A DNA stretch of 31,500 bases from NCBI GenBank assembly GCA_003056265.1, contig NBVN01000008.1:1-31500 (forward strand), given 5' to 3'. The position numbers and the translations under genes are program-made. This DNA is from Zestosphaera tikiterensis (GTDB taxonomy: Archaea > Thermoproteota > Thermoprotei_A > Sulfolobales > NBVN01). Of the stretch, positions 4,916 through 21,199 are shown in pieces. Numbering within the stretch: position 1 is the stretch's first letter; each line of letters begins with the position of its first letter. A model generated the notes under the pieces. That model was not told where the DNA came from. It worked only from the letters and a program-made list of their open reading frames with translations, and did no database searches.

Positions 4916-5845
4916 GTGAACATTATGGTTTGCGGTTTAAGCCCTAGAAATTCTGCAGAAAATAAATGTAAATTGGTTCTATTGCTATTCATAGCCGCAT
5001 TTCTCCTCATAGTCTCGCCTTTGTATTCTGGATACATAGATAAAGTATTGATTGCAGATGCAAGCTATGTCTTTAGAAACCTTCCGTATACCTTTTATCT
5101 GGGTTTTGCTATCGTAAATGTACTACTAGTCGTCTTCATCTATATTGCAATAAAGCACGGCCATGTCTATCCATTCCTTTTTACTTTCGCTATAATGTTA
5201 TACATGCTTTATCTCGAATATCCAAGGCTCCTCTATCCAAATGCCTTCCAGATCGAATATTTTCACCAGGCGCAGATATACCATGCATTGAACTATGGCA
5301 TGGTCACCGACCCTGGCTACAGCTTCCCTAGATCTGATGTGGCTCACGCAATATGGACAGCGTCTCTAATAATGCTCACCGACATGCCGAAAGATTTCTC
5401 CGTGAGTTACGTGGCTCCAATTCTCGTTAGATTAGCCCTAATAGTGATTGCGTGTAGCATGGTGCTGAAATACAGCGAGAATATTAGTAATCATTTCGCC
5501 TGTGTCTTAATTCTAGCTCTTCCGCTATACATTCTGATCTCCGATACAGAGCCTCTCTTTATCAATCACTACTCCTACGCCCTTCCCTTATACCTGCTAC
5601 TCCTCTATGTAGTGAGCAGAAGGGATCTCAACTTAGAGCATAGACTAGTTTCGCACTTCATACTACTCGTTTTTATAGTGGCTTCTATAACAATAACGCA
5701 CATATACTTTGCGGCAACAACAATCCTAGCTTTCCTAGCAATACTTTTCTTTAGAATTCTTCGTGGAAATAAGGCACCGGTATTTCAGCTGTACATATTG
5801 TCAGCAATTATTTACTCTATATGGCATGGTATGGCCTCTAGCTGA
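4916..5845 (+). CDS. polytopic membrane protein (glycan polymerase/GT-C-like topology), apparently cut short by an in-frame TGA
   Basis: It is almost entirely hydrophobic helices. By eye it resembles the N-terminal part of the 6679..8460 protein. It could start at GTG-4916 or ATG-4925. The stop TGA 5843-5845 is followed by the same frame staying open to 6046. Confidence 0.6.
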   Translation: MNIMVCGLSPRNSAENKCKLVLLLFIAAFLLIVSPLYSGYIDKVLIADASYVFRNLPYTFYLGFAIVNVLLVVFIYIAIKHGHVYPFLFTFAIMLYMLYLEYPRLLYPNAFQIEYFHQAQIYHALNYGMVTDPGYSFPRSDVAHAIWTASLIMLTDMPKDFSVSYVAPILVRLALIVIACSMVLKYSENISNHFACVLILALPLYILISDTEPLFINHYSYALPLYLLLLYVVSRRDLNLEHRLVSHFILLVFIVASITITHIYFAATTILAFLAILFFRILRGNKAPVFQLYILSAIIYSIWHGMASS

Positions 5846-6091: not shown

Positions 6092-6604
6092 AAGAAGGCT
6101 GCGTGTGAGAACCTCATACACGCCTACAGCATGCTTTACGGAATCAGGGCAGTTGTGCTGAGGTACGCAAACGTAGTCGGCCCTAGGCTTAGGCATGGAG
6201 TGATCTACGACCTCCTCATGAAGCTCAGAAGGGATAGAACTAGGCTTGAGGTTCTCGGAGACGGGACGCAGGTGAGGAGCTACATATACGTAGACGATGC
6301 AGTCGACGCGACTATGATAGCCTATGAGAGGGCGGGAGAAGGCTTCAGCGCGTTCAACGTGGCAAGCGAGGACTGGATAACCGTGAGGGACGTGGTTCAG
6401 ATAATCCTGAGGGAGCTGGGCATCGAGAACATCGAGGTGGTCTACAGATCCATTATGCACGGAGTCGGCTGGCCCGGAGACATTAAGAGGATAGCGCTCA
6501 GGATAGATAGGCTGAAGGCCTTGGGCTTCAAGCCGTCAATGAACAGCGAAGAAGCCGTAGCTAAAACTGTTAAAGCACTTGCCCTTGAGTTTGAGCATGG
6601 CTAA
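6092..6604 (+). pseudogene. C-terminal fragment of a second NAD-dependent epimerase/dehydratase (Rossmann N-terminus missing)
   Basis: The frame opens right after TGA 6089-6091 with KKAACENLIHAYSMLYGIRAVVLRYANVVGPR, which lies at about the catalytic YxxxK lysine. It continues with LGDGTQVRSYIYVDDAVDA and the C-terminal substrate domain. About 130-150 N-terminal residues of a normal epimerase are absent. Confidence 0.7.
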
Positions 6605-6678: not shown

Positions 6679-8460
6679 ATGGAAATGATTAAGAGAATAA
6701 GCTATAGTATACTTAAAATACTAAAATTCTTGATTGCGATATCCTCAATAACAACTTTGGCAATTATACTCTACCGCCTCGGCACGACGTCCTACAGCGT
6801 CTTTTCAGTAACACCTCTATACTTCATGTATTTTTCCAACTACTTAATGCCTATATCAATTCTTTACGTATTTATTGCATCAATAGCATCTTTAAGGTTG
6901 AGAGACAAAAAGCTGTTTATACTTACAATCCTAATCTTGTACTCAATGGTTCTTTACGTACCTTACACCATGTTTACGTTGTATATATACAATGATCAGC
7001 TAGGATTCGCTATTGAGACTTTATCAGGCATGGTGAGAGGATATGTAATACCTTATCAAGGAGAACCTGCAACTCTGGGCCACGCATTCTTCTCTGCAAT
7101 ACTTGGGGAAGTCCTTAGCCTAGATCTATTTTCGACTACGCGTTTCGTAGAGACGCTCTTCATAATTATAGTTTTTCTATTCTATTTGGTTCTTGCAATG
7201 CCTCTATTCGATGATTATAGAAACGTGAAAAGAAGTTCCAGCTCAATTCTGCTTTTCATCATATTGATACTTTTAGTGTTTCCCGCATTCATTATCGAGC
7301 CCCTTCTTTACTCTAGAGGGTATTTTGGTCTTGTAACCTCGATACCCCTGCTTCTCTGTGCATTCAGATTCTTAGAGAAAAGGAGCATAGAAAATGTAGT
7401 CGTGCTTACTACAATATTCGTATCTTCATCTATATCTTACCCTCTCCCACCTCTCATAATGACCGTAAGCTTCGTCTTTCTTGCTGTAGCCTCGAAAATC
7501 AAAATCTTTACACCTTTCTTTGGAGAGATTCGCTATAATAGGAAGCTCTTAATAGTAGCCATAGCTCTCTCTGCGATCTGGATTGTTATCCAAGTATACT
7601 TGGGGTACAGCTCTTGGAATGTTCTTCACGAGATCATTTCGAAATGGTTGAGCTTTGAGTTCTTTACATCATTCGAATACGCTATTGCCCTAAAGTATGT
7701 TGGTGAAGCTAGTGTGTATTTGAACTTACGATTAGGGGTTATTCTATTTGGGTGGTTTACATCAGCGTTTTTGTTCTTACTGCTAACTTTAAAGATTTAT
7801 GGAGAGAAGAGAGCTTCACAAACCGAGCTCTTTTCAGCGATCTTGCTATTGATGTACGGTGTTTTAGGCGTTATTTATGCTATAGGCTTTCATGAACCGG
7901 GACTTAGATTCTATCGTAATCTACTTGCAGCGTTGCCATTTTCGTATAGCGTGATCGCTACACAAGGGTTTGAAAAATTCGCGAAGAAGAAAGTTCCCCT
8001 AAAAGCTCTCCTCATGATACCGCTATTTTTAATGGTTTTCTCTCTAGCCCTTAGCCCCGTTGTGAAGTGGGGATGGGTTTTCGTAGCATACCCTACTAAA
8101 CATGACTTAGCATTAACTGACTTCATCACGTCATTCAGCGGAGTAGAGGTCTCTAAAACATATGCTCCAGGGTCTCACGAGCTGCTATGGTTCGCCTTTG
8201 AATCTTCTAGGATAAGTGACTCAACAAATTCTTTTATCCCAGCTATACTGTACGCAGGTGACGTGACATTCACCTTAGATAAAAGCCTTACCGCGGATCT
8301 TACTGTTACATATTATAGAATTTTTATATATTCTCGCTGGCTTGGGATATATCAGGACATGCTTGGAGAACTTCAGAATGCAGTGCTGCAATGTAGTAAG
8401 CTGTATGACGCTGGTGAGTTTTATATGACTTTAAAGGCTGGATATAGGCTGGGGGCATAA
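6679..8460 (+). CDS. large polytopic membrane protein with a soluble C-terminal domain (glycan polymerase / GT-C-like)
   Basis: It is 593 aa with many hydrophobic helices (at least 12 by eye), followed by a roughly 110-aa non-hydrophobic tail. It sits inside the glycosyltransferase cluster. I saw no WWDxG (AglB/STT3) motif. Confidence 0.7.
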   Translation: MEMIKRISYSILKILKFLIAISSITTLAIILYRLGTTSYSVFSVTPLYFMYFSNYLMPISILYVFIASIASLRLRDKKLFILTILILYSMVLYVPYTMFTLYIYNDQLGFAIETLSGMVRGYVIPYQGEPATLGHAFFSAILGEVLSLDLFSTTRFVETLFIIIVFLFYLVLAMPLFDDYRNVKRSSSSILLFIILILLVFPAFIIEPLLYSRGYFGLVTSIPLLLCAFRFLEKRSIENVVVLTTIFVSSSISYPLPPLIMTVSFVFLAVASKIKIFTPFFGEIRYNRKLLIVAIALSAIWIVIQVYLGYSSWNVLHEIISKWLSFEFFTSFEYAIALKYVGEASVYLNLRLGVILFGWFTSAFLFLLLTLKIYGEKRASQTELFSAILLLMYGVLGVIYAIGFHEPGLRFYRNLLAALPFSYSVIATQGFEKFAKKKVPLKALLMIPLFLMVFSLALSPVVKWGWVFVAYPTKHDLALTDFITSFSGVEVSKTYAPGSHELLWFAFESSRISDSTNSFIPAILYAGDVTFTLDKSLTADLTVTYYRIFIYSRWLGIYQDMLGELQNAVLQCSKLYDAGEFYMTLKAGYRLGA

Positions 8461-11129: not shown

Positions 11130-12200
11130 ATGAAAATTGCGATAATGAGACGCGGATCCATTACGAGTCTTGACGGCGTTAATAGGTTCTGCGCCTATCT
11201 AGCTGAGGGGCTGAGGAAGCTGGGTCATGAGGTCTTCATAGCCTCGTGGGGCTTCTACGGCGTTGAAAGGGAGAACCTATCCAAGTATTTCGCAGAGGTT
11301 CACGGGCTCGAAGAGGAGATCCCGGTATACACCATCGAGGAGAAGCCCAGGCACGGAGGCCCCTGGGCCGAGATCCTGTTCGACTGGTGGTTTAAGGGTA
11401 GCAGGCTCCTAAAGGAGCTCGGTGCGGACGTCGTGGTTATGAACGGTGTTGCGCCTCTACGCTTCAAGCCCAAGGTTGCTGTGGCTCATGGACCTCTGGG
11501 CAGGGTTTCGAGGCTTAAAAGGCCGATTCTGAAGGCTCTCTACGGGATGTACGACTACGTGGTGTGCGTATCCAAGGCATCGGAGGAGGAGTACAAAGGG
11601 ATAACTAGGTGTAGCGAGATCATTCCGCTACCCTTCAAGACGAGCCTCTACATGCCTAAGCCCCTCGAGTACAGATCCAACATAGTGGTTCACGTAGGTA
11701 CAGCGCCTAGGAAGAATCCCCAGGTGAGTGTTGAAGCTGTTCGGATTCTGAGGGAGAGAGGCTTAGACGTGAAGTTTGTATTCGTAGGAGCCAGGAATAA
11801 TCTTATAGAAGAGTTCGCCAGGAGGTACAGCTTCGTTGAACCCCTCTTCAGCGTTGACGAGAGGACTAAGGCGGAGCTATTGTCCAGAGCGAAGGTTCTG
11901 ATCCTGCCGTCCAGCGGGGAAGCCCTCCCGTATACCACTCTTGAAGCCATGGCGAGCGGAACACCTCCAGTGGTTTCAAGTGCAGTCCCTAGCGACGTGG
12001 TTATAGACGAGTTCAACGGGGTCAGAGTGGACAGCCTTAACCCAGTCGACTATGCGAATGCGCTGGAGAAGTTGCTTAGAGAGGAAGACCTATGGCTCAA
12101 GCTATCGAGAAATGGAACCGAGTTCGTTAAGAGATTCGACCAAGTGGAGGTCGCCAGGAGGTATGAGGACGTCTTTAGGAGGCTACTCCATGAGTCCTAG
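11130..12200 (+). CDS. family 4 (GT-B) glycosyltransferase
   Basis: The N-terminus reads MKIAIMRRG...GVNRFCAYLAEGLRKLGHEV. The C-terminal part reads SSGEALPYTTLEAMASGTPPVVS (EX7E). The gene is GC-rich and lies 5 nt after the deacetylase. Confidence 0.9.
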   Translation: MKIAIMRRGSITSLDGVNRFCAYLAEGLRKLGHEVFIASWGFYGVERENLSKYFAEVHGLEEEIPVYTIEEKPRHGGPWAEILFDWWFKGSRLLKELGADVVVMNGVAPLRFKPKVAVAHGPLGRVSRLKRPILKALYGMYDYVVCVSKASEEEYKGITRCSEIIPLPFKTSLYMPKPLEYRSNIVVHVGTAPRKNPQVSVEAVRILRERGLDVKFVFVGARNNLIEEFARRYSFVEPLFSVDERTKAELLSRAKVLILPSSGEALPYTTLEAMASGTPPVVSSAVPSDVVIDEFNGVRVDSLNPVDYANALEKLLREEDLWLKLSRNGTEFVKRFDQVEVARRYEDVFRRLLHES

Positions 12201-12999
12201 GGAGGCCCTCCTAAGGGTTAGAGAAGTCGTCGAAACTTCCGGGGATGGAAGGGTTAGGCACAGCTACTACCTAGAGTTTCATATAAGGCTTCAAGCCTTG
12301 GAGCTCGTAGCTGAGTACTGCCAGGACAGGAGGGTCGTAGACTTCGGTGCGAGCCCCTTCATAACCTCGTGCGCTTTAAATTTTATGGGCTTCGAGGTTA
12401 TAGCTGTTGACTTCGACCCGGAGGAGTACAGGAGTATTGCGGAGACATGCCAAGTCCAAGCTGTTAGGGCGGATCTCGAGAGGGATAGGGTACCGGTAGG
12501 GGATGAATGGACTGACTGCGCAATCTTCTCAGAGGTCTTGGAGCACATTAACCCGTACTATGTGGGTCACGCTCTCTCAGAGATCAGCAGGGTTCTGAGG
12601 CCCGGAGGGATCCTTGTACTCACGACGCCGAACATAGCCTCACTCTTCAGGAGGATACGGCTTCTGCTGGGGATTCAGCCTCAGTACAGGCTTCACGTCC
12701 ACGAGTACACGAAGCCCGAGGTCGAAGACCTCTTGGGGAGGCATGGCTTCAGGGTCTTGAGGAGCTTCTACTCTGACGTAGACGACCTGACCTACGTAGA
12801 CGCAGAGGCCGAGGAGTACTTGGAGCTGGGCACCTATCGGCGGCTCCTACGCCTAGCCCTTAGGAGGCCTACGAGGCTGAACATCCTTAGGCTTCTCGCT
12901 TACCCCATCGTCAAAGCGTTTCCGGGTCTCAGGATGCTTATAGTCGTGGTAGCTGAGAAGGTGTCTGGTGCTGAAACCATTGGTGTGCACAGATGGTGA
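12190..12999 (+). CDS. class I SAM-dependent methyltransferase
   Basis: ATG-12190 overlaps the GT4 stop (ATGAGTCCTAG). Motifs are VVDFGASP (motif I-like), AVDFDPE, CAIFSEVLEHINP and LRPGGILVLTTPN. The tracked start at 12052 lies inside the GT4 gene and is unlikely. Confidence 0.85.
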   Translation: MSPREALLRVREVVETSGDGRVRHSYYLEFHIRLQALELVAEYCQDRRVVDFGASPFITSCALNFMGFEVIAVDFDPEEYRSIAETCQVQAVRADLERDRVPVGDEWTDCAIFSEVLEHINPYYVGHALSEISRVLRPGGILVLTTPNIASLFRRIRLLLGIQPQYRLHVHEYTKPEVEDLLGRHGFRVLRSFYSDVDDLTYVDAEAEEYLELGTYRRLLRLALRRPTRLNILRLLAYPIVKAFPGLRMLIVVVAEKVSGAETIGVHRW

Positions 13000-13204
13000 G
13001 TGGAGATCGTTGATTGCCGTGTTAAGCGCTATGCCTAATGCTATCCTCATAACTTGTGATACCGGGTTTATGCCGACTCTTCTAGAGGAATGCGAGATTT
13101 CACTACTCAATCTTTATCAAGTCCATGGATTCCGCCTCTGCACCGGGTAGAGTACTTTAAAGTAGATAAGTAGGTGAAACATCTTGAAGGAGGAAGTGTA
13201 GCTG

Positions 13205-14102: not shown

Positions 14103-14260
14103 ATTCCAGTCTAGAAGTTTACTGAAGCATGCGTATATATGTAGTGATGTATCGCATAGTATTAGGCAATGCTCTTACGCGTTCAGCTCAACTATGGGGA
14201 AGAGGCCTACTGAAGGGAGGAATAAAGCAGGGCTTCCAAATAATCTCAGCCTTGAAGCCG

Positions 14261-14277
14261 TGATACATGGTGTATCA
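14261..14277. repeat. perfect dyad TGATACA-TGG-TGTATCA sharing the GATACA core of the upstream array
   Basis: Read directly from the sequence. Inverted copies of the array word also occur at 14139-14144 (ATGTAG) and 14146-14153 (GATGTATC). Confidence 0.7.
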
Positions 14278-14466
14278 GCGACTATGCAAGGACAAGTGTA
14301 GCTCACTCAGGGAAGTATAGTCCTCCTAACCGGTGGCAGGATTTACAGGAAGCCGTAAATGAGCCCTCCGGCTATGCATAGGCCTAGGCTCATGGTGTTC
14401 TCGAAGCTCTTCCGGCCCAAGGGTGGTGGAGCTGGTTTGCAATATGACGTAATCAATGAAAATAGC

Positions 14467-15210
14467 ATGCATAATAGAAAGGCCATGATTATCTTTGTCT
14501 CAGGCCTTGTAGGTGCGGGTAAGACCACTTTTGCAAGAAATCTCAAGTCTTATTTAGTATCTCAAGGTTTTAAGGTATGCATATACAGGATTAGTGCCTT
14601 TCCACTCATTTCATACGCATTCTTCAGATCGCTAGCTTGTATACTCTATGGTTGCAAAGTAGTCAAGAATTATGAAAAAATCAACATTCATCCATCAACT
14701 CTAGTTCTACTAAGAGTTAAGAGAATACCGTTTTTGACGACATTAATTGTGATTTACCTAGAAATAGTGAGTACGCTTCTAAAATATCTTGAGGTCTTTC
14801 TTCACTGTAGACGAATAAACACGATAATTATAGATGAAGGTTTAATTAATCAATTTGCGAACTATATCGAGATTCTCGGCAAGCAAAGTGCGTTACTTAT
14901 ATCCTTTATTGAAATAGTCTTTGAAAAGCTTAGAAAGATGCTTAGCTTCGATATAGACATCATCTTTATAAATATCAGGGACTACTCTGTGCTCCTAAAT
15001 CGCTGGTACATGCGTGGACATCCATTACTTACAAGCTTCATCGATCTAAAGCATCATTTTAAATACCTGAGATGTATCGAGATTTCGAAGAATATCATGC
15101 TAAAAGTGTTTAGTCAGCATATAGTCGAACTGAACACTGATGAAAAGACGCCACATGAGTTAGTACTAGAGTACCTTAGTAGCAGAGGGCGTCATTATGA
15201 TCGGCGATGA
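14467..15210 (+). CDS. P-loop nucleoside/nucleotide-kinase-like protein (thymidylate-kinase-fold-like), paralogue of 16785..17426
   Basis: Walker A is FVSGLVGAGKTTFARNL and the Walker B-like strand is NTIIIDEG. The likely start is ATG-14467 or ATG-14485 (MIIFVSG) rather than the tracked 14359. The gene is AT-rich. Confidence 0.6.
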   Translation: MHNRKAMIIFVSGLVGAGKTTFARNLKSYLVSQGFKVCIYRISAFPLISYAFFRSLACILYGCKVVKNYEKINIHPSTLVLLRVKRIPFLTTLIVIYLEIVSTLLKYLEVFLHCRRINTIIIDEGLINQFANYIEILGKQSALLISFIEIVFEKLRKMLSFDIDIIFINIRDYSVLLNRWYMRGHPLLTSFIDLKHHFKYLRCIEISKNIMLKVFSQHIVELNTDEKTPHELVLEYLSSRGRHYDRR

Positions 15211-15799
15211 CCGCACGTCATCAAAGGCTCTAGTAGCTTATGTTGTCGATCTAGATCATACGTTAGTAGGAATTAATACTGCCTACGAATTCTTGAAAAT
15301 CTTATGTCCACTAAAATACATGATATTATCAAGGCTACTGTTCCCATTCAGTTTTTTGAATCATATACTAAGAAGAGATCTCTTCAAGTTTATCATGATG
15401 AAGCTTTGCGTAAGAAATTTCGGCGAAAAAGAAATAAAATTATACGCGCAAGCGTATTACCGAAAATATATACCAAAGCATCTCAACACCTCTCTCACAG
15501 TATTTCTACAGACACAAAAAGGATTGAAAGTACTATTAACCGCTTCAATAGACTTAATAGCAGATAACCTCAAGGAACTGGGTTTTGACATCATTATAAG
15601 TACTAAATCATTTTTTAAAAAAGGCAGATACTACACAATACTCGACCTATACGGTAAGAAGGGCTGTCTCCTGCAAGTCGTCTCAAAGTATTTCAGTAAA
15701 ATAATAGTTTTCGATGATGCCCCCGAACAAAGCTTCTATAAATTAAACAACGTTGTTGTAGTGAAGATACGCTATGACTCCTCAGAGCAAAATCGATAA
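15197..15799 (+). CDS. HAD-superfamily (IB-like) phosphatase
   Basis: HAD motifs are I VVDLDHTLV (DxDxT), II LLTAS, III GKKG and IV VFDDAPE. It overlaps the upstream gene by 14 nt. Confidence 0.65.
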   Translation: MIGDDRTSSKALVAYVVDLDHTLVGINTAYEFLKILCPLKYMILSRLLFPFSFLNHILRRDLFKFIMMKLCVRNFGEKEIKLYAQAYYRKYIPKHLNTSLTVFLQTQKGLKVLLTASIDLIADNLKELGFDIIISTKSFFKKGRYYTILDLYGKKGCLLQVVSKYFSKIIVFDDAPEQSFYKLNNVVVVKIRYDSSEQNR

Positions 15800-16697
15800 G
15801 CTCATACTAGTTCTTAACATGGTTACATATAGGATTGATGCATTACTAGCAAACGCTATAGATGTAATTATGATATCGGCTTATACCACCATTGTAAGTA
15901 AGGCCTTGAATCTATTGAACGCATCGCTAGATGAGGTCATTTACTTATTGGGCGTGACAATAATTCTTACACATATTGCCTACATGATTGTATATCTGTT
16001 AAACGATTTGATAGATTACTCTACGGCATATCTTTCTAAAGTCGATTATTCATTCTATAGATTAAGACCCGTATTCTATTTCAGGCGTGCACTATGGATA
16101 ATAGTATACTCCGCTCTATTATATGTTACAGGTATTACAGCGATATTGATTACCATACCAACAATCTCTGGGCCTACGCTAATCTTCATACCTGTATTCA
16201 TTGTGACGGCAATAATGCATTCATATGCCAGAGGAATTCATAGAATTATCACATTCCTTATGTTGAGATTTAGTAAATACATATATACGTTAGTAGCGTT
16301 TAGCATGCTTTCTTTCGGCGAGATAAATACCTACGTACTGTTGTTAACGACGTTCTCCATCATCATTCCTTACCTTGCATATTCCTCGACAGGTTATAGC
16401 AGATTAAAGGGGTTGAAAACGAGAAGCTTAAATGGAATTGCGTACCTAATCCCCGTTCTCAGCATTTTAATGGCAATACCTTTGGGAATGACTTTATTAG
16501 GCTACTCAATTTTCGACTTATTGAGAGCATTGTTGTGTGGTTACTTTTACATCATACTTCCATTGACTATAGTAAGACAGATGCTCCGTAGACCATTAGG
16601 TGCAGTTAACCCAACTTTCTATCATCATCTTCTACGTCTATCTTTAGGATTTGTCGCCGCATTTTCTATAAGCATCCTAGTCATCCTACTTTCGTGA
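15774..16697 (+). CDS. polytopic membrane protein with an NDxxD motif (UbiA-prenyltransferase-like?)
   Basis: It has about 8-9 hydrophobic helices. YLLNDLIDYSTA after TM2 resembles the first Asp-rich motif (NDxxDxxxD) of UbiA-type transferases, but the third Asp is missing and the second motif is unclear. It overlaps the HAD gene by 26 nt. Confidence 0.4.
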   Translation: MTPQSKIDKLILVLNMVTYRIDALLANAIDVIMISAYTTIVSKALNLLNASLDEVIYLLGVTIILTHIAYMIVYLLNDLIDYSTAYLSKVDYSFYRLRPVFYFRRALWIIVYSALLYVTGITAILITIPTISGPTLIFIPVFIVTAIMHSYARGIHRIITFLMLRFSKYIYTLVAFSMLSFGEINTYVLLLTTFSIIIPYLAYSSTGYSRLKGLKTRSLNGIAYLIPVLSILMAIPLGMTLLGYSIFDLLRALLCGYFYIILPLTIVRQMLRRPLGAVNPTFYHHLLRLSLGFVAAFSISILVILLS

Positions 16698-16784
16698 GCA
16701 AGCATTCTCTGAAATCATAGATATATAGCTTCTTGTCATTTCATCATTGCCACACAAGTAGTGAGACGGAGAGGGCTTGCCGAC

Positions 16785-17426
16785 ATGTTGAGGCCCCTAT
16801 CTCGTTCTAAGCACTCCAAACTCGCCATAGCCCTCTCTGGCTGCGATGGCTCGGGGAAGACTACTCTCGCAAAGATCCTGGCTTCATATCTCTCTAGGTA
16901 TGGCTCTGCCGGGGTTTTCTGGTTTCGTGGTAGCCATTTCATGGCCTCCCTGCTTCTCCGCGTGCTCAGCCGGTTCAGGGTTTTTAGGGATGGCTGCAAC
17001 CCGTATTATGGGGTCTGCATCCCTAGGAAGCTGAGGCAGCTGTGGATCCATATCGAGTTCTGGTCTGCTATCCCGTATATTCTTCTGAGAACTGTGTTGG
17101 GGAGGCTGTATAGGTTCATCGTTTTCGATAGGGGTGTTGTAGACTTCATTGCCTGGGTTGTCACCACCCTCGGCTACCCGGGGTTTTTATCGAGCCTCTA
17201 CGGTAGATTCCTGGTTAGACTGGCTTTGAAGGAGAATATCGTCTACCTCCACGCTGATAGGGATGTGCTCGTTGCGAGAGCTGATGTGTCGCCGGGTTTT
17301 ATTTATAGGGAGTACGCTGTCTACAGTGTTTTAATGAGGTATCTTGCTAGGTGCATTATTGATACTGGTTTAAACAGGCCTGTAGGGGCTACTGTAGGTG
17401 TTTTAAAGTGTATGGGGCTAGCCTGA
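16785..17426 (+). CDS. P-loop thymidylate-kinase-fold protein, paralogue of 14467..15210
   Basis: ALSGCDGSGKTTLAKIL is the G-DG-GKTT P-loop typical of dTMP-kinase-like proteins. Other motifs are IVFDRGVVDF (DR motif) and LHADRDVLVAR. The start is ATG-16785 or GTG-16761. The gene is GC-richer than its paralogue. Confidence 0.65.
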   Translation: MLRPLSRSKHSKLAIALSGCDGSGKTTLAKILASYLSRYGSAGVFWFRGSHFMASLLLRVLSRFRVFRDGCNPYYGVCIPRKLRQLWIHIEFWSAIPYILLRTVLGRLYRFIVFDRGVVDFIAWVVTTLGYPGFLSSLYGRFLVRLALKENIVYLHADRDVLVARADVSPGFIYREYAVYSVLMRYLARCIIDTGLNRPVGATVGVLKCMGLA

Positions 17427-18277
17427 GGCTCTTAAAGACCCTTGAGGGGTCTTATAAGCCGGGTGCTAGTGAGCTCCCACTGCTAGCCGAGGTTGCTAGG
17501 ATGAATAAGCTTTACCTAGCCTTCCTCAGGGCTGTAAGGGATAGCCTCCCGGGTGAGTGGGCTTCTGAGGAGGAGAGGTTTAGGAGGTATATTGGGGGCT
17601 CACTAGAGGTTGCAAAGGCCTTGAGGGGCCTTAGATACGGGTTCTACAAGTTCCGGAGGCCGGTGGACCACGTCTCCGTCGACCTAGACCTATTAATCCA
17701 CGTTGACGACGTTAGGGAGGCTGTTAGGAGGCTTACTAGTAGGGGGTTCAGGATCGCTGTTTCAGAGCCCTACACGGTTACACTTAAGCGCGGGGGCTTC
17801 ATTGTAGACCTCTACACCCACCCATCCTTCGCTTGGATAGTTTACATGGATGGATTAAGGATCCTGAAGGACTACTCAGAGGAGTTCGAGGTCAACGGCA
17901 CGTATGTATCGGGGATAACTAGGGAGGCTGAGGTAGCTGTAGCGGCTGCCCACGCAGTATATAAGGAGCACATGATCCTACTCATAGACTGCTTAACGGC
18001 ATGGAGCTGGCTTACGGGGAGGACTATATGCGTTGCTGAAGAGCTTGGAGCTAGGAGAGCACTTGAAAAACTCCTCAACATCTGTAGAGAAATAAGGGTA
18101 GGCATTAGTGAAGCACCATATAAGCTCCCACACTCATCCCTTCTAGAAATCTACGCAGAGAAGTTCTCTGAAGACCCTACCTTCAGAGCCACAATAATGA
18201 ACATCCTAAGGTACGTAGTAAAGCGTGGAGACTCCGGAAGAGCAATCCTACAGAGACTCACAAGGAAGAGTTACTAG
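17408..18277 (+). CDS. nucleotidyltransferase-fold protein (NTP_transf_5-like)
   Basis: The motif HVSVDLDLLIHVDDVREAVRRLTSRGFRI (Dx D carboxylates) sits in a 289-aa protein of the size and shape of the 'uncharacterised nucleotidyltransferase' family. It overlaps the upstream gene by 19 nt. Confidence 0.5.
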   Translation: MYGASLRLLKTLEGSYKPGASELPLLAEVARMNKLYLAFLRAVRDSLPGEWASEEERFRRYIGGSLEVAKALRGLRYGFYKFRRPVDHVSVDLDLLIHVDDVREAVRRLTSRGFRIAVSEPYTVTLKRGGFIVDLYTHPSFAWIVYMDGLRILKDYSEEFEVNGTYVSGITREAEVAVAAAHAVYKEHMILLIDCLTAWSWLTGRTICVAEELGARRALEKLLNICREIRVGISEAPYKLPHSSLLEIYAEKFSEDPTFRATIMNILRYVVKRGDSGRAILQRLTRKSY

Positions 18278-18728
18278 CTTTATTAATTGCTAAACCTTCC
18301 TTCAATAAATAGAGTAAAGCCACCTTAAAGAACCATAGCGTTGAGGCATTACACGTATGAGATCGCTAAGCTAACTTTAACTAAGCTTACTAAGAGTAAT
18401 CGTTAAAGGTTTAATTAAGTCTGGGTTTTAAGCACTCCTAGTTACTTCCTGAAGATATTTGAGGTTTTTAATGCGATGTTATTAGTTACTATTACTTAAG
18501 AACTTAAAGCTTAGGAAAACATCTTAAGATTTGCTTAACTCCCGCGTTAACTATATTCTCAACCTTAACATTCTTTTTGAAGTTTAAACGAAGCTGAATT
18601 TCCACCTCATTAAGCTTTCAGATATTCTAAATGTTTAGCTGGAGCAATTTAAATATTGCTAAGCATTTAATAGTTAATATGCGGTGATCGCTAAATAGCT
18701 AACCCTCTGATGTTTTGTGGTGTGATAA

Positions 18729-19796
18729 ATGGGGAAACCTAGGATTTGTGCTGTAGTTGTTACGTTTAATCGTAGGGAGCTTCTCTTAAAGTGTTTGGAA
18801 GCTTTAAGAAGGCAAACCTACCCATTAGATGCTATTTTTATAGTTGACGGTCCCTCGACGGATGGGACTCCGGAAGCCCTGTTAGAGTATGGGTATATTA
18901 AAGAACTTCCTCCGAAGAAAGGAAGTCTATCTTGGGAAACTACAAACAGCATCTACGGTCGGGATAAAGCGAATATAGAAGTACATTATGTTAGGCTATA
19001 TAGCGATGTTGGAGGTTCGGGTGAGTTTCATGAAGGAATTAAAAAGGCTTACGTGAGAGGATGCGATTGGATTTGGTTAATGGACGACGATGCTGAACCT
19101 AAGGAAGATGCTTTGGAGAAATTAACATGCTATCTAAATTTACCAAACGCTATAGCACTGTCGTGTCTGAAAATCGATGAAAACGGTAATGTCATATACC
19201 CTCATATCGGATACCTTCAATTCGAACATGTAATTAAGCACCATATTATCAAACCTATAAGTGACTCTAATTACAGAGGTAGGGAATTCGTAGAGATAGA
19301 TTTCTCTTCTTTTGTTGGTTTACTTCTGAATTCACGCGCGGTTAAAAACATCGGACTTCCAGATAAGCGGTTTTTTATAACTCAGGACGATGTTGAATAC
19401 TGCATTCGCTTAAACTTAAGAAACGTTGGGAAAATATACTTAATTCCTAAAAGCGTTATAACGCATAAGGAAAGTCTAAAAAAGAAAGATTTAATTGAGA
19501 AGAGGTTCTTAGGAAGAAGGTTCTATAGAATACCTTATAACAAGCTTTGGAAGACATACTATGGATTAAGAAACTTCATATATTTAGGGAGAATATACTC
19601 TAAAAACCAAATCACGTTTATAAGTGAACTACTAAGTTGGTATATTAAATCCATAATTAAAATCATCATTTTTGATGATTTCAAAATTAAGAGAATCTGG
19701 TTTCTAACATCAGCGGTTACGGACGGCTTAAAAGGTGTATTCGATAATGAAAAACCTAGGCGAATTCTATATGGTGAGTATAGGTTAGTGAGATAA
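18729..19796 (+). CDS. family 2 glycosyltransferase (rhamnosyltransferase/WbbL-like, soluble)
   Basis: Motifs are ICAVVVTFNRRELLLKCLEALRRQTYPLDAIFIVDGPSTDGT and the DxD WLMDDDAEP. GGTG lies upstream of ATG-18729. Confidence 0.9.
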   Translation: MGKPRICAVVVTFNRRELLLKCLEALRRQTYPLDAIFIVDGPSTDGTPEALLEYGYIKELPPKKGSLSWETTNSIYGRDKANIEVHYVRLYSDVGGSGEFHEGIKKAYVRGCDWIWLMDDDAEPKEDALEKLTCYLNLPNAIALSCLKIDENGNVIYPHIGYLQFEHVIKHHIIKPISDSNYRGREFVEIDFSSFVGLLLNSRAVKNIGLPDKRFFITQDDVEYCIRLNLRNVGKIYLIPKSVITHKESLKKKDLIEKRFLGRRFYRIPYNKLWKTYYGLRNFIYLGRIYSKNQITFISELLSWYIKSIIKIIIFDDFKIKRIWFLTSAVTDGLKGVFDNEKPRRILYGEYRLVR

Positions 19797-19881
19797 GAAG
19801 TAAATTTTAGAGTTAATTATCCTTAACGAAAAGATGGAGAAGGCACTCACTATCAGGGGGTAAACCGATAGATAAGGGAGG

Positions 19882-20373
19882 TTATTTCAGTGATTTTGAA
19901 AGGAACTCTATAAATCTTTCAAGAGCCCTTCTGTATTTATGGTAGGTGGATTCACTTATGCTGTGTTCTTTCAAGTAATCTTCTAGGAATTCCTTTATGG
20001 TTTCATCTTTTAATTCTAAGGGGTTTATATGCTTGTCTTTAATCCATGAGGCAAACCTTCTAATAATGAATGTCCCTTTCTTAACTTTTTCTTCATTGAT
20101 GTATTTCCTCACAAGCTCTTCTACGTTGCCGATTTCAACAACTCCTGTGGGTTCTCCACTTATAGCAACTCCTAAAGATGAGGTTTCCCGACCTTTTTCA
20201 AAACCTCTTTTATATGCTTCATAATAATATGTTAGGATATTAGCCATAAGCTGGCTTGGTTCCATAGCGATTTCCTTTGAAAATTCCTCAAGCCATTCTA
20301 CTAGATGTTTCGGCAACTTAATTTCTATGGTTTTAAAGTTATGTAAGTCCTTCAAAGTTCTCAACCCTCTCAA
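19882..20373 (-). CDS. ParA partner: N-terminal ribbon-helix-helix domain fused to an integrase-type SAM-like (core-binding) domain
   Basis: It overlaps the 3' end of parA (TTG-20373 or TTG-20364). The RHH pattern is TIEIKLPKHLVEWLEEFSKEIAMEPSQLMANILTYYYEAY. The C-terminus (LKDETIKEFLEDYLKEHSISESTYHKYRRALERFIEFL) resembles the phage-integrase N-terminal SAM-like domain. There is no catalytic domain. Confidence 0.55.
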   Translation of the reverse strand: MRGLRTLKDLHNFKTIEIKLPKHLVEWLEEFSKEIAMEPSQLMANILTYYYEAYKRGFEKGRETSSLGVAISGEPTGVVEIGNVEELVRKYINEEKVKKGTFIIRRFASWIKDKHINPLELKDETIKEFLEDYLKEHSISESTYHKYRRALERFIEFLSKSLK

Positions 20374-21199
20374 GAACTTCTCTTGCTAAAGTATCTATAT
20401 TCTGCCTTAACTCGTTATTTCTCTCCATAACCCTATTTAACGGTAACTCCCACCTCCTAGGCCTATACATCAAGTCTTTAAGCTCTTCATACCTATATAT
20501 GATTGTGTTGAAGAAAGGCTTCTTATAGAAGCGCTCACGTACGGTAGGCGGTAGTTGATGGAGGAACTTCGTGAACGCGTGATCAACGCTGTTGAGGGTG
20601 TTACCACTTACTTTTCTGGTAACGTTAATCACTATAATACCTAATATCTTTAATTCCTTCTTACTCTTCATTATAACGTCCGGAAGTATATCCTTCACTA
20701 GAAGCTTAACTCCAGCAAGCGAAAGTTCCTCTAAATTCGACGGAACTAACACATAGTCTGCAGCGTATAAACCCCATATAGTCGGTGGGAAGAGCTCTGG
20801 AGGGGTATCGCATAATATGAAGTTATAGTCTCTATTTATAGCAGGCTCCATTTGAATCCTAGAGTTAATAGCGTAGGGATCCCACGACGGAATCATACCT
20901 CTATACGTATTCACTATATAGTTAAGGCCTGACGGTATGATACCCATCCTACCCCTAGTGCTGGTATCTACCTTACGTATCACGAACTTCACGCCTTGCG
21001 CCATCTCTATTATGCCATCCCTCACATTCTCAAGATCAGTTATCTTCAAAAAGAACGATGATAAATGCGACTGAGGATCTAAATCCATCAGTAGAACATT
21101 ATACCCCCGAGCAACTAAAGCATGACCGAGTAACGCGGTAAGAGTTGTTTTACCAGTGCCGCCTTTCTGGTTTGTAATAGTCAACACTTTAGGCGGCAT
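20339..21199 (-). CDS. parA: ParA/MinD-family partition ATPase
   Basis: The deviant Walker A is ITNQKGGTGKTTLTALL. Other motifs are LLMDLDPQ and ILCDTPP (Walker B region). It is 286 aa with a C-terminal extension. Confidence 0.9.
   Translation of the reverse strand: MPPKVLTITNQKGGTGKTTLTALLGHALVARGYNVLLMDLDPQSHLSSFFLKITDLENVRDGIIEMAQGVKFVIRKVDTSTRGRMGIIPSGLNYIVNTYRGMIPSWDPYAINSRIQMEPAINRDYNFILCDTPPELFPPTIWGLYAADYVLVPSNLEELSLAGVKLLVKDILPDVIMKSKKELKILGIIVINVTRKVSGNTLNSVDHAFTKFLHQLPPTVRERFYKKPFFNTIIYRYEELKDLMYRPRRWELPLNRVMERNNELRQNIDTLAREVLERVENFEGLT

Follow-up and report, generated by a model that had tools for sequence, protein, structure and literature searches.

In C. youngae O1, the enzyme ORF15 (PPPRS) carries a HAD phosphoribose phosphatase at its N terminus, followed in the same chain by a UbiA-type polyprenyl-phosphate 5-phosphoribosyltransferase, and makes undecaprenyl-phosphate-ribofuranose for a periplasmic GT-C enzyme, and a HAD/UbiA fusion in reverse order is found in P. 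syringae (Kelly et al., PMC11127046). In Mycobacterium tuberculosis, the transferase Rv3806c (DPPR synthase) is adjoined by a separate phosphatase gene, Rv3807c. Concerning kinases, it was reported for the PsmK/PsmN couple of a lasso-peptide cluster that a hexose is linked to the kinase-derived phosphate only if PsmN is present (PMC6993621, PMC9266682). The locus analyzed here lies in a 31,500-nucleotide stretch of Zestosphaera tikiterensis (contig NBVN01000008.1, positions 1 to 31,500; hereafter the window) and holds five genes, g1 to g5, which may bring remote analogues of both kinds of system together, with g1-g3 as sub-module A and g4-g5 as sub-module B. We believe, with a probability of about 0.5, that these are two conserved sub-modules joined within a variable archaeal glycan island and acting by the chemistry proposed below. 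None of the five genes has been studied to date. Archaeal surface glycans are very diverse and few of their biosynthetic steps are known; to our knowledge, Archaea have no described route to a lipid-linked pentofuranose.

The five + strand open reading frames (ORFs; Table 1) are all present in the ORF map as the initial annotation had described them, with overlaps of 14, 26 and 19 nt between neighbours and 63 nt separating g3 from g4 (87 nt if g4 starts at its second ATG), and every motif quoted there was found, namely GLVGAGKTT/IIIDEG in g1, DLDHTL/LLTAS/VFDD in g2, NDLID in g3, GCDGSGKTT/VFDRG in g4 and SVDLDLLI in g5. We screened 60 loci, designated by L numbers, with hidden Markov models (HMMs) of the five proteins; the loci were obtained from contigs encoding homologues, from a metagenome scan with a 10-sequence g3 profile and from a genome scan with a g5 profile. 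The full quintet was found in identical order in L019, L020, L024 and L049, the last being a Desulfurococcus sp. metagenome-assembled genome, so that the co-localisation elsewhere proposed as a check in the initial annotation was indeed observed, and at least four of the five genes occur in L004, L005/L006 and L022. Since the same order recurs while g3 in these quintet and near-quintet loci is only 33-43% identical to the window copy, the arrangement is not due to chance.

The initial annotation had also treated the five genes as one module, but they are not an obligate unit: the quintet is a composite of two separable sub-modules and not one indivisible operon. Among 22 non-redundant g3 loci, which are not phylogenetically independent, a HAD gene lies directly upstream of g3 in 18 of the 21 assessable ones, usually with an overlap of 1-26 nt, and g2-g3 is the deep core of sub-module A. 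Of 16 assessable loci, 10 have a g1 orthologue directly in front of the HAD gene, and in the loci screened g1 was seen only together with g2-g3; 9 of the 10 assessable g1-bearing loci also have g4 or g4-g5 downstream. Overall, g4 lies downstream of g3 in 8/16. HAD and g3 occur without g1, g4 and g5 in L010, L011, L025, L029 and L031, where glycosyltransferases (GTs) and methyltransferases still flank them, and g4-g5 are adjacent without the trio g1-g3 in about 20 genome loci. These separate occurrences, together with the absence of the trio from the locus L007 and a break in G+C content (GC) between trio and pair, are the reasons for reading the locus as two units. Two variants of the core were also observed: in L025 (4073-5470) the HAD protein preceding g3 carries an S-adenosylmethionine-dependent methyltransferase domain (Methyltransf_11) at its N terminus, and in L029 and L015 FkbM methyltransferases adjoin the HAD-g3 pair.

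L007 belongs to a close relative, its flanking DNA being 92-97% identical to the window. By blastn the two sequences match at 93% identity up to position 14160 and at 92.5% from 16833 on, with no match between. L007 shares the upstream coiled-coil helix-turn-helix gene and the downstream g4-g5 with the window, lacks the trio and carries a different 5.3-kb insert at the cassette site. The right breakpoint falls 72 nt inside g4, in the conserved P-loop region. In the window, g1-g3 have a GC of 0.36 versus 0.51 for g4-g5, and the trio is a swapped-in low-GC cassette. A similar break was seen in six of the seven loci measured, i.e., the window and L002, L004, L020, L024 and L049 (trio 0.31-0.39, g4-g5 0.45-0.62 in these five), while in L019 g4-g5 have a GC of 0.37-0.39, overlapping that of the trio, and no clear break is present. 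Two further window genes, a class-I methyltransferase gene (12282-13117) and a GT2 gene (18639-19862, GC 0.36), are also missing from L007, and the island therefore varies by whole-gene cassettes; the cassette structure shows how glycan islands diversify. Near the left junction, the possible N-terminal extension of g1 (14359-14466) contains a 21-residue stretch with 67% identity to L007 5172-5234, the end of an unrelated 354-aa ORF.

Cassette exchange could also mean that the sub-modules are functionally unrelated and merely adjacent, the site upstream of g4-g5 being a recombination hot spot. Consistent with this, L007 carries its different cassette exactly there, with the breakpoint inside a conserved region, and in other islands the region upstream of g4-g5 is occupied by different P-loop paralogues and different genes; moreover, in L002 the g4-g5 pair lies 2.5 kb downstream of g3 owing to a 2.5-kb insertion, and in L014/L016 no g4 is found within the 1.5 kb that follow the trio. 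However, the adjacency is kept across lineages in which the GC of g4-g5 ranges from 0.37 to 0.62 and g3 is only ~35% identical, and g1, never seen without g2-g3, is rarely seen without g4. We thus consider mere adjacency unlikely.

At the other extreme, the five proteins may form one integrated, Lic-like pathway of five steps, in which g1/g4 would phosphorylate a small alcohol or sugar, g5 would activate it as a nucleoside diphosphate (NDP) derivative, g3 would transfer the phospho-moiety and g2 would trim the product, a phosphodiester-linked or non-sugar decoration on a lipid or glycan. The fixed order in at least five loci at 33-43% g3 identity speaks for such a pathway, as do the nearly constant position of the g1-bearing trio directly upstream of g4-g5, the standard NDP-activation logic of a kinase with a nucleotidyltransferase, and the co-occurrence of g1 and g4 (8 loci have both, 2 have g1 alone, none has g4 alone and 5 have neither), the counts being phylogenetically non-independent. 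Nevertheless, HAD and g3 exist in at least five lineages without a kinase or nucleotidyltransferase neighbour, about 20 loci hold g4-g5 without g3, and the GC break and cassette swap argue for separate histories. In addition, no UbiA-fold enzyme is known that takes NDP-alcohols as donors, a reaction typical of CDP-alcohol phosphotransferases and LicD-type enzymes, none of which is present. The Lic phosphocholine route named in the initial annotation is an analogy only, with no LicA, LicC or LicD family among the Pfam/NCBIfam matches at E<=1 for any of the five proteins, and we regard a single integrated pathway as rather unlikely. The suggestion of a non-sugar substituent also has to be revised, as the likely product of g2-g3 would be a lipid-linked sugar, a pentofuranose.

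Turning to the two-sub-module reading and its core, g2 scores 25.4 bits (E 2e-5) against PF12710, whose cut-off is 27, and relatives with 34.1 and 39.9 bits pass it. It shows the motifs I-IV expected of a HAD IB-like phosphatase, and these are invariant in 16 orthologues (D18xD20xT22, S117, K155, D173-D174). In a profile search of the PDB it retrieved phosphoserine phosphatases only, and weakly (E 0.014). The functional assignment of g2-g3 is mainly based on the coupled pair, HAD gene first and g3 second, which reproduces the organisation of ORF15 split in two genes. Like PPPRS, the pair combines a HAD protein with a DxD nucleophile motif and a predicted UbiA-fold transferase with nine transmembrane (TM) helices, in the same HAD-then-membrane order and in a surface-glycan locus. 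In contrast, the two parts are fused in the bacteria and encoded by two overlapping genes in the archaeon, and neither a MATE flippase nor a GT136 partner was found near g2-g3. Furthermore, PPPRS is 31-34% identical to Rv3806c, whereas g3 has no detectable similarity to UbiA or Rv3806c and lacks the third Asp of the first motif.

The g3 family is rare. A word-index search returned 4 homologues of g3 among 5.8 billion proteins and, with a 36-sequence family profile, 9 proteins, and an exhaustive profile search among 1.84 billion proteins yielded 38 representatives; no sequence match was obtained in Pfam, NCBIfam or the PDB. An AlphaFold2 model built with the five close homologues only reached a predicted local distance difference test (pLDDT) score of 49 and was discarded. 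The model built from the 36-member family alignment has a pLDDT of 92 and a predicted template-modelling (pTM) score of 0.91, and shows nine TM helices, with short cap helices (89-102) following TM2. Its top Foldseek match in the PDB is the Rv3806c phosphoribosyltransferase (8j8j; probability 1.0, TM-score 0.48/0.51, identity 14%), followed by ApUbiA, AfUbiA, DGGGP synthase and UBIAD1 (entries 4od4, 4tq3, 6m31, 8djk) and then by soluble prenyl synthases; seven of the eight best matches are UbiA-superfamily structures (TM-scores 0.34-0.51). Judging from the model, g3 very probably has a UbiA fold. We refer to it as UbiA-fold and not as a demonstrated UbiA member, because no sequence method links the g3 family to UbiA. 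The family is thus a case of unannotated membrane enzymes, missed by sequence models, that predicted structure alone reveals.

It could be argued that g3, being polytopic and unassigned to a family, moves lipid-linked sugars across the membrane as a transporter or flippase and is not an enzyme, the more so as the island requires a flippase. The initial annotation had left room for assignment to a transporter family, and none emerged: Foldseek transporter matches stay at noise level (probability <=0.1, TM-score <=0.2). The conserved polar residues are grouped in the manner of an active site, in the cap loop and where TM1, TM2, TM4 and TM5 end on the cytoplasmic side, and g3 is strictly coupled to a phosphatase, which makes a transporter role highly improbable.

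The residues conserved in the g3 family are R20, D/E22, N27, D/E30, H67, Y70, Y74, N77, D78, D81, Y95, R98, P99, S150, R157, R165, K168, Y169, Y200, Y203 and Y208, with P199 and K/R212 joining the last three after TM6; among the 36 members, N77 is found in 35, D78 in 36, D81 in 30, R98 in 36 and P99 in 31. The spacing from N to R in the first motif is 21, versus 17 in the UbiA pattern NDxxDxxxD...R-x-x-R-P, and no conserved acidic column of a second Asp-rich motif (DxxxD) exists beyond residue 100. In Rv3806c, a single Mg2+ is bound by Asn73 and Asp77, Tyr70 touches the 5'-phosphate, and the pyrophosphate is held by Arg22 (TM1), Lys87, Arg90, Lys143 and Lys208, while in the classical UbiA enzymes an acidic pocket holds the second Mg2+ that they require (PMC10994848). 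Judged by motif register, Y74, N77 and D81 of g3 are spaced as Y70, N73 and D77 of Rv3806c (Y-x2-N-x3-D), R20 at the start of TM1 would correspond to R22, R98 lies in the TM2-3 loop, and R157, R165 and K168, together with Tyr residues, surround the TM4-5 turn, with K212 after TM6. Owing to the Y-x2-N-x3-D spacing, the TM1 and loop Arg, the basic residues and the lack of a second Asp motif, the residue pattern of g3 is closer to that of the phosphoribosyltransferases than to that of the prenyltransferases, as far as can be judged from motifs.

The prenyltransferase type nonetheless deserves attention, since ApUbiA, AfUbiA, DGGGP synthase and UBIAD1 score nearly as high as Rv3806c in Foldseek, and an NDxxD motif with a loop Arg-Pro is a generic UbiA feature. 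In that case g3 would attach the prenyl group of a prenyl diphosphate donor to a sugar, to glycerol phosphate or to an aromatic head group, g2 would dephosphorylate the product, and the module would make a lipid anchor and not a sugar donor. However, to hold the diphosphate, classical UbiA enzymes depend on a pair of acidic motifs with two Mg2+ (PMC10994848), whereas the C-terminal half of g3 has basic residues and no conserved acidic one. Furthermore, every locus is a glycosyltransferase island and not a lipid or quinone locus, and the HAD pairing agrees with the known phosphoribosyl enzymes. A genuine prenyltransferase therefore appears quite improbable.

With respect to Rv3806c, the best structural match to the g3 model, the likeness would, by motif register, extend to the spacing of a single Asn/Asp Mg2+ site, the Arg at the start of TM1, the loop Arg and the lack of a functional second acidic pocket; a separate phosphatase gene adjoins each transferase, Rv3807c there and g2 here. 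The two also differ: the TM-score is ~0.5 and the identity to g3 14%, whereas known members are ~30% identical to Rv3806c; Rv3807c is a PAP2-type phosphatase and g2 is of HAD type; and no DprE1/DprE2 epimerase is found in the archaeal locus. The decaprenyl-phospho-ribose route with its phosphatase, one of the analogies offered in the initial annotation, proved to resemble g2-g3 most closely in both structure and organisation.

Based on this analogy, g3 would be a very divergent UbiA-fold intramembrane transferase with its active site facing the cytoplasm, most likely moving a phospho-sugar from a pyrophosphoryl donor to polyprenyl or dolichyl phosphate. Our best guess for the transferred group is 5-phosphoribosyl from phosphoribosyl pyrophosphate (PRPP), and the carrier would be dolichyl phosphate, because the host is a hyperthermophilic archaeon. 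The translationally coupled g2 would then strip the distal phosphate, giving a lipid-phosphate-pentofuranose as donor for a glycosyltransferase working outside the cell, and g2-g3 would represent a split, remote counterpart of the PPPRS fusion and of Rv3806c/Rv3807c. That the pair is, in its chemistry, such an analogue of the lipid-phosphate phosphoribosyl-transferase/phosphatase systems is in our opinion close to an even chance, if slightly below it. The strict HAD pairing makes the proposal for g3 directly testable with the assay that established the bacterial enzyme in 2024.

A number of findings speak against the proposed chemistry. As regards the fold, UbiA models gave no match at E<=1 to any of the 36 g3 family members, hhalign of the g3 family versus a profile of three sequences (E. 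coli UbiA, MenA and CyoE) gave a probability of 6%, and the Foldseek E-values of 0.03-0.6, with TM-scores of ~0.5, are modest. The third Asp of NDxxDxxxD is not conserved in the g3 family, and the residue correspondences with Rv3806c are derived from motif spacing and not from superposition. The ribose-phosphate phosphatase domain of the Haemophilus influenzae type b (Hib) capsule enzyme, although its structure is known, was missed by the g2 profile. With PRPP as donor, g1 would not be required. The loci revealed no consistent partner of g2-g3 of the GT-C or flippase kind; DUF2206 occurs near the module in L025 and L029 only, and the large polytopic proteins near the module are unclassified and also common in islands without g3. 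Such unclassifiable proteins are encoded at 6679-8460 and 4916-5845 of the window, in L010 (609 aa), L020 (508 aa) and L026 (523 aa). In our literature search, no archaeal glycan with a pentofuranose (ribofuranose) was found.

The two P-loop proteins are related to each other. Comparison of the g1 and g4 families by hhalign gave a probability of 97.5% (E 6e-12) over 197 aligned columns, with homology along the full length of the proteins, so that their paralogy, as originally proposed, is well founded in sequence. Direct family scans of g1 and g4 yielded P-loop matches only. A profile of the entire superfamily matches archaeal PSTK (1.8e-14), the Aquifex thymidylate kinase (~6-8e-14) and YorR (3.5e-9; structures 3adb, 2pbr and 2axp), and the match spans P-loop, Walker B and LID, i.e., the kinase core. 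The features shared with thymidylate kinase (TMK), PSTK and deoxynucleoside-kinase-like enzymes are the P-loop GxDGxGKTT, the D-R of Walker B (in g4) and the LID arginine; g1 has the P-loop GLVGAGKTT, the Walker B strand IIIDEG and a LID-like LLNRWYMRG, and the motifs GCDGSGKTT, WFRGSH, NPYY and DRG with the LID Arg are conserved in g4. The 'thymidylate-kinase fold' assigned by the initial annotation consequently stands for this core and not for the remainder, where a ~60-residue acceptor segment is replaced by an insert, WFRGSH...NPYY in g4 or FPLxSY...HPSTL in g1. A role as true thymidylate kinases was rejected: the TIGR00041 scores are 14.6 and 17.3 bits versus a cut-off of 83.25, PF02223 covers the P-loop only, and positions ~45-105 of 2pbr, the acceptor segment, remain unaligned, in agreement with the expectation that the dTMP-binding region is missing. 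Because the acceptor-binding segment is unalignable and conserved family-specific inserts take its place, g1 and g4 appear to be kinase-like enzymes with a new acceptor site. Unusually hydrophobic inserts had been proposed for both proteins; on the Kyte-Doolittle scale g1 is indeed strongly hydrophobic at residues 42-60 and 78-108, whereas no part of g4 exceeds the threshold, its insert being aromatic-rich and highly conserved.

Further divergent g1/g4 paralogues were observed a few kb upstream of g4-g5 in islands without g2-g3, namely at L007 7447-8142, L008 7429-8121, L037 6522-7253 (directly upstream of g4), L047 1512-2168, L048 178-990, L054 2492-3235 and L058 3739-4455. Diversification of these kinases appears to go hand in hand with that of the cassettes.

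In sub-module B, g5 scores 28.5 bits against PF14907 (cut-off 31.2) and has 315 homologous clusters; among the 120 listed, the majority have a precomputed match to PF14907. The domain calls made for the five proteins in the initial annotation are right, with g2 and g5 just below the Pfam cut-offs and their homologues above them. The residues H88-V-S90-V-D92-L-D94 and D134 of g5, corresponding to the Pol-beta S-x-D-x-D and third Asp, are invariant, and no solved relative was found by a PDB sequence search. In nearly all g5 loci of Acidilobaceae, Desulfurococcales, Thermogladius, Thermofilum, Infirmifilum, Vulcanisaeta and Fervidicoccaceae, g4 lies directly upstream of g5 and usually overlaps it, and the g4-g5 pairs without the trio belong to these groups. 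GT4 (19), GT2 (10), epimerases (10) and FkbM methyltransferases (9) are the most frequent families among the 146 neighbouring ORFs of the pair. In public records g5 is named 'nucleotidyltransferase family protein' or 'hypothetical' and g4 'ATP-binding protein'. The coupled kinase-nucleotidyltransferase pair g4-g5 is thus a fixture of Thermoproteota glycan islands. Some g5 homologues are broken into 2-3 ORFs (L055 8001-8865 of Vulcanisaeta sp. JCM 14467, L042 7986-8854 and L059 243-1050), which could be due to pseudogenisation or sequencing frameshifts, and L008 carries a short second g5-like fragment (11967-12131, 56% identity over 55 residues) 1.1 kb downstream of its intact g5.

The pseudomycoidin couple PsmK/PsmN resembles g4-g5 in that a P-loop kinase is joined by an uncharacterised Pol-beta-type nucleotidyltransferase, a putative PF14907 member, the second enzyme building on the phosphate of the first. 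On the other hand, PsmK is of the HPr-kinase type and g4 is TMK/PSTK-like, and the substrate of the former couple is a peptide Ser. In a phosphonate gene-cluster family, a thymidylate kinase and PF14907 flank PEP mutase. As such couples recur in lasso-peptide, phosphonate and glycan clusters, solving one could explain a recurrent two-enzyme logic. By analogy, g4 would phosphorylate a hydroxyl, and g5 would then probably nucleotidylate that phosphate or otherwise build on it. As to g1, we infer a kinase serving the g2-g3 cassette; our guess is that it might make or regenerate the pyrophosphoryl-sugar donor, as PhnN does for PRPP. We likewise infer every substrate, the reaction order and any functional link between sub-modules A and B. 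The complete chain, in which g1 would make a sugar-pyrophosphate donor, g3 load it onto dolichyl phosphate, g2 finish the pentofuranose and g4-g5 add a phosphate-linked decoration to the same glycan, is a scenario that we consider doubtful, with only a small likelihood. If true, it would be a surface-glycan route of Thermoproteota that is new to Archaea, g1 and g4 would represent a new TMK-like kinase family acting on glycan or lipid-linked substrates, and NTP_transf_5 would receive its first function outside lasso peptides.

Table 1. Positions in the window of the five genes and of the segment exchanged relative to L007.
Feature	Position	Strand	Description
g1	14467..15210 (alternative upstream ATG 14359)	+	P-loop kinase-like protein, cassette-specific g4 paralogue
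g2	15197..15799	+	HAD-IB-like phosphatase, g3 partner
g3	15774..16697	+	9-TM membrane protein with predicted UbiA fold, unannotated family, candidate polyprenyl-phosphate phospho-sugar (phosphoribosyl) transferase
g4	16761 (or 16785)..17426	+	P-loop kinase-like protein, constant g5 partner
g5	17408..18277	+	Pol-beta-type nucleotidyltransferase, NTP_transf_5 (PF14907)
Swapped cassette	14161..16832	not applicable	g1-g3 and first 72 nt of g4; blastn versus L007

Family scans of the surroundings of the quintet revealed GT4, GT2, FkbM and class-I methyltransferases, a polysaccharide deacetylase and an epimerase. The setting is called a glycan island because the neighbouring genes encode glycosyltransferases, methyltransferases, a polysaccharide deacetylase and sugar epimerases, and the location proposed in the initial annotation agrees with these families. 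None of the five proteins matched a GT model in the Pfam and NCBIfam scans, so their description as other than glycosyltransferases is also correct. A reading of the module as a defence system was rejected, PADLOC having returned P-loop noise only.

Regarding individual neighbours, the + strand gene at 6679-8460 encodes a 593-aa polytopic protein with ~11-12 hydrophobic segments and that at 4916-5845 (+) a 309-aa polytopic membrane protein; no Pfam match was obtained for either, even at E 0.5, and both are candidates for a GT-C enzyme, a polymerase or a flippase. For the 157-aa ORF at 6131-6604 (+), probably a gene fragment, the only match is to profile positions 160-240, the C-terminal part, of the NAD-dependent epimerase family. 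Downstream of the quintet, on the - strand, a 163-aa protein (19882-20373) matches only models of the phage-integrase N-terminal SAM-like domain, with no catalytic domain, and its gene overlaps a ParA/MinD-type ATPase gene (20339-21199, -). The pair (19882-21199) is 97% conserved in L007, beside PIN and AF2212-like genes, and could represent the edge or a relic of a mobile element.

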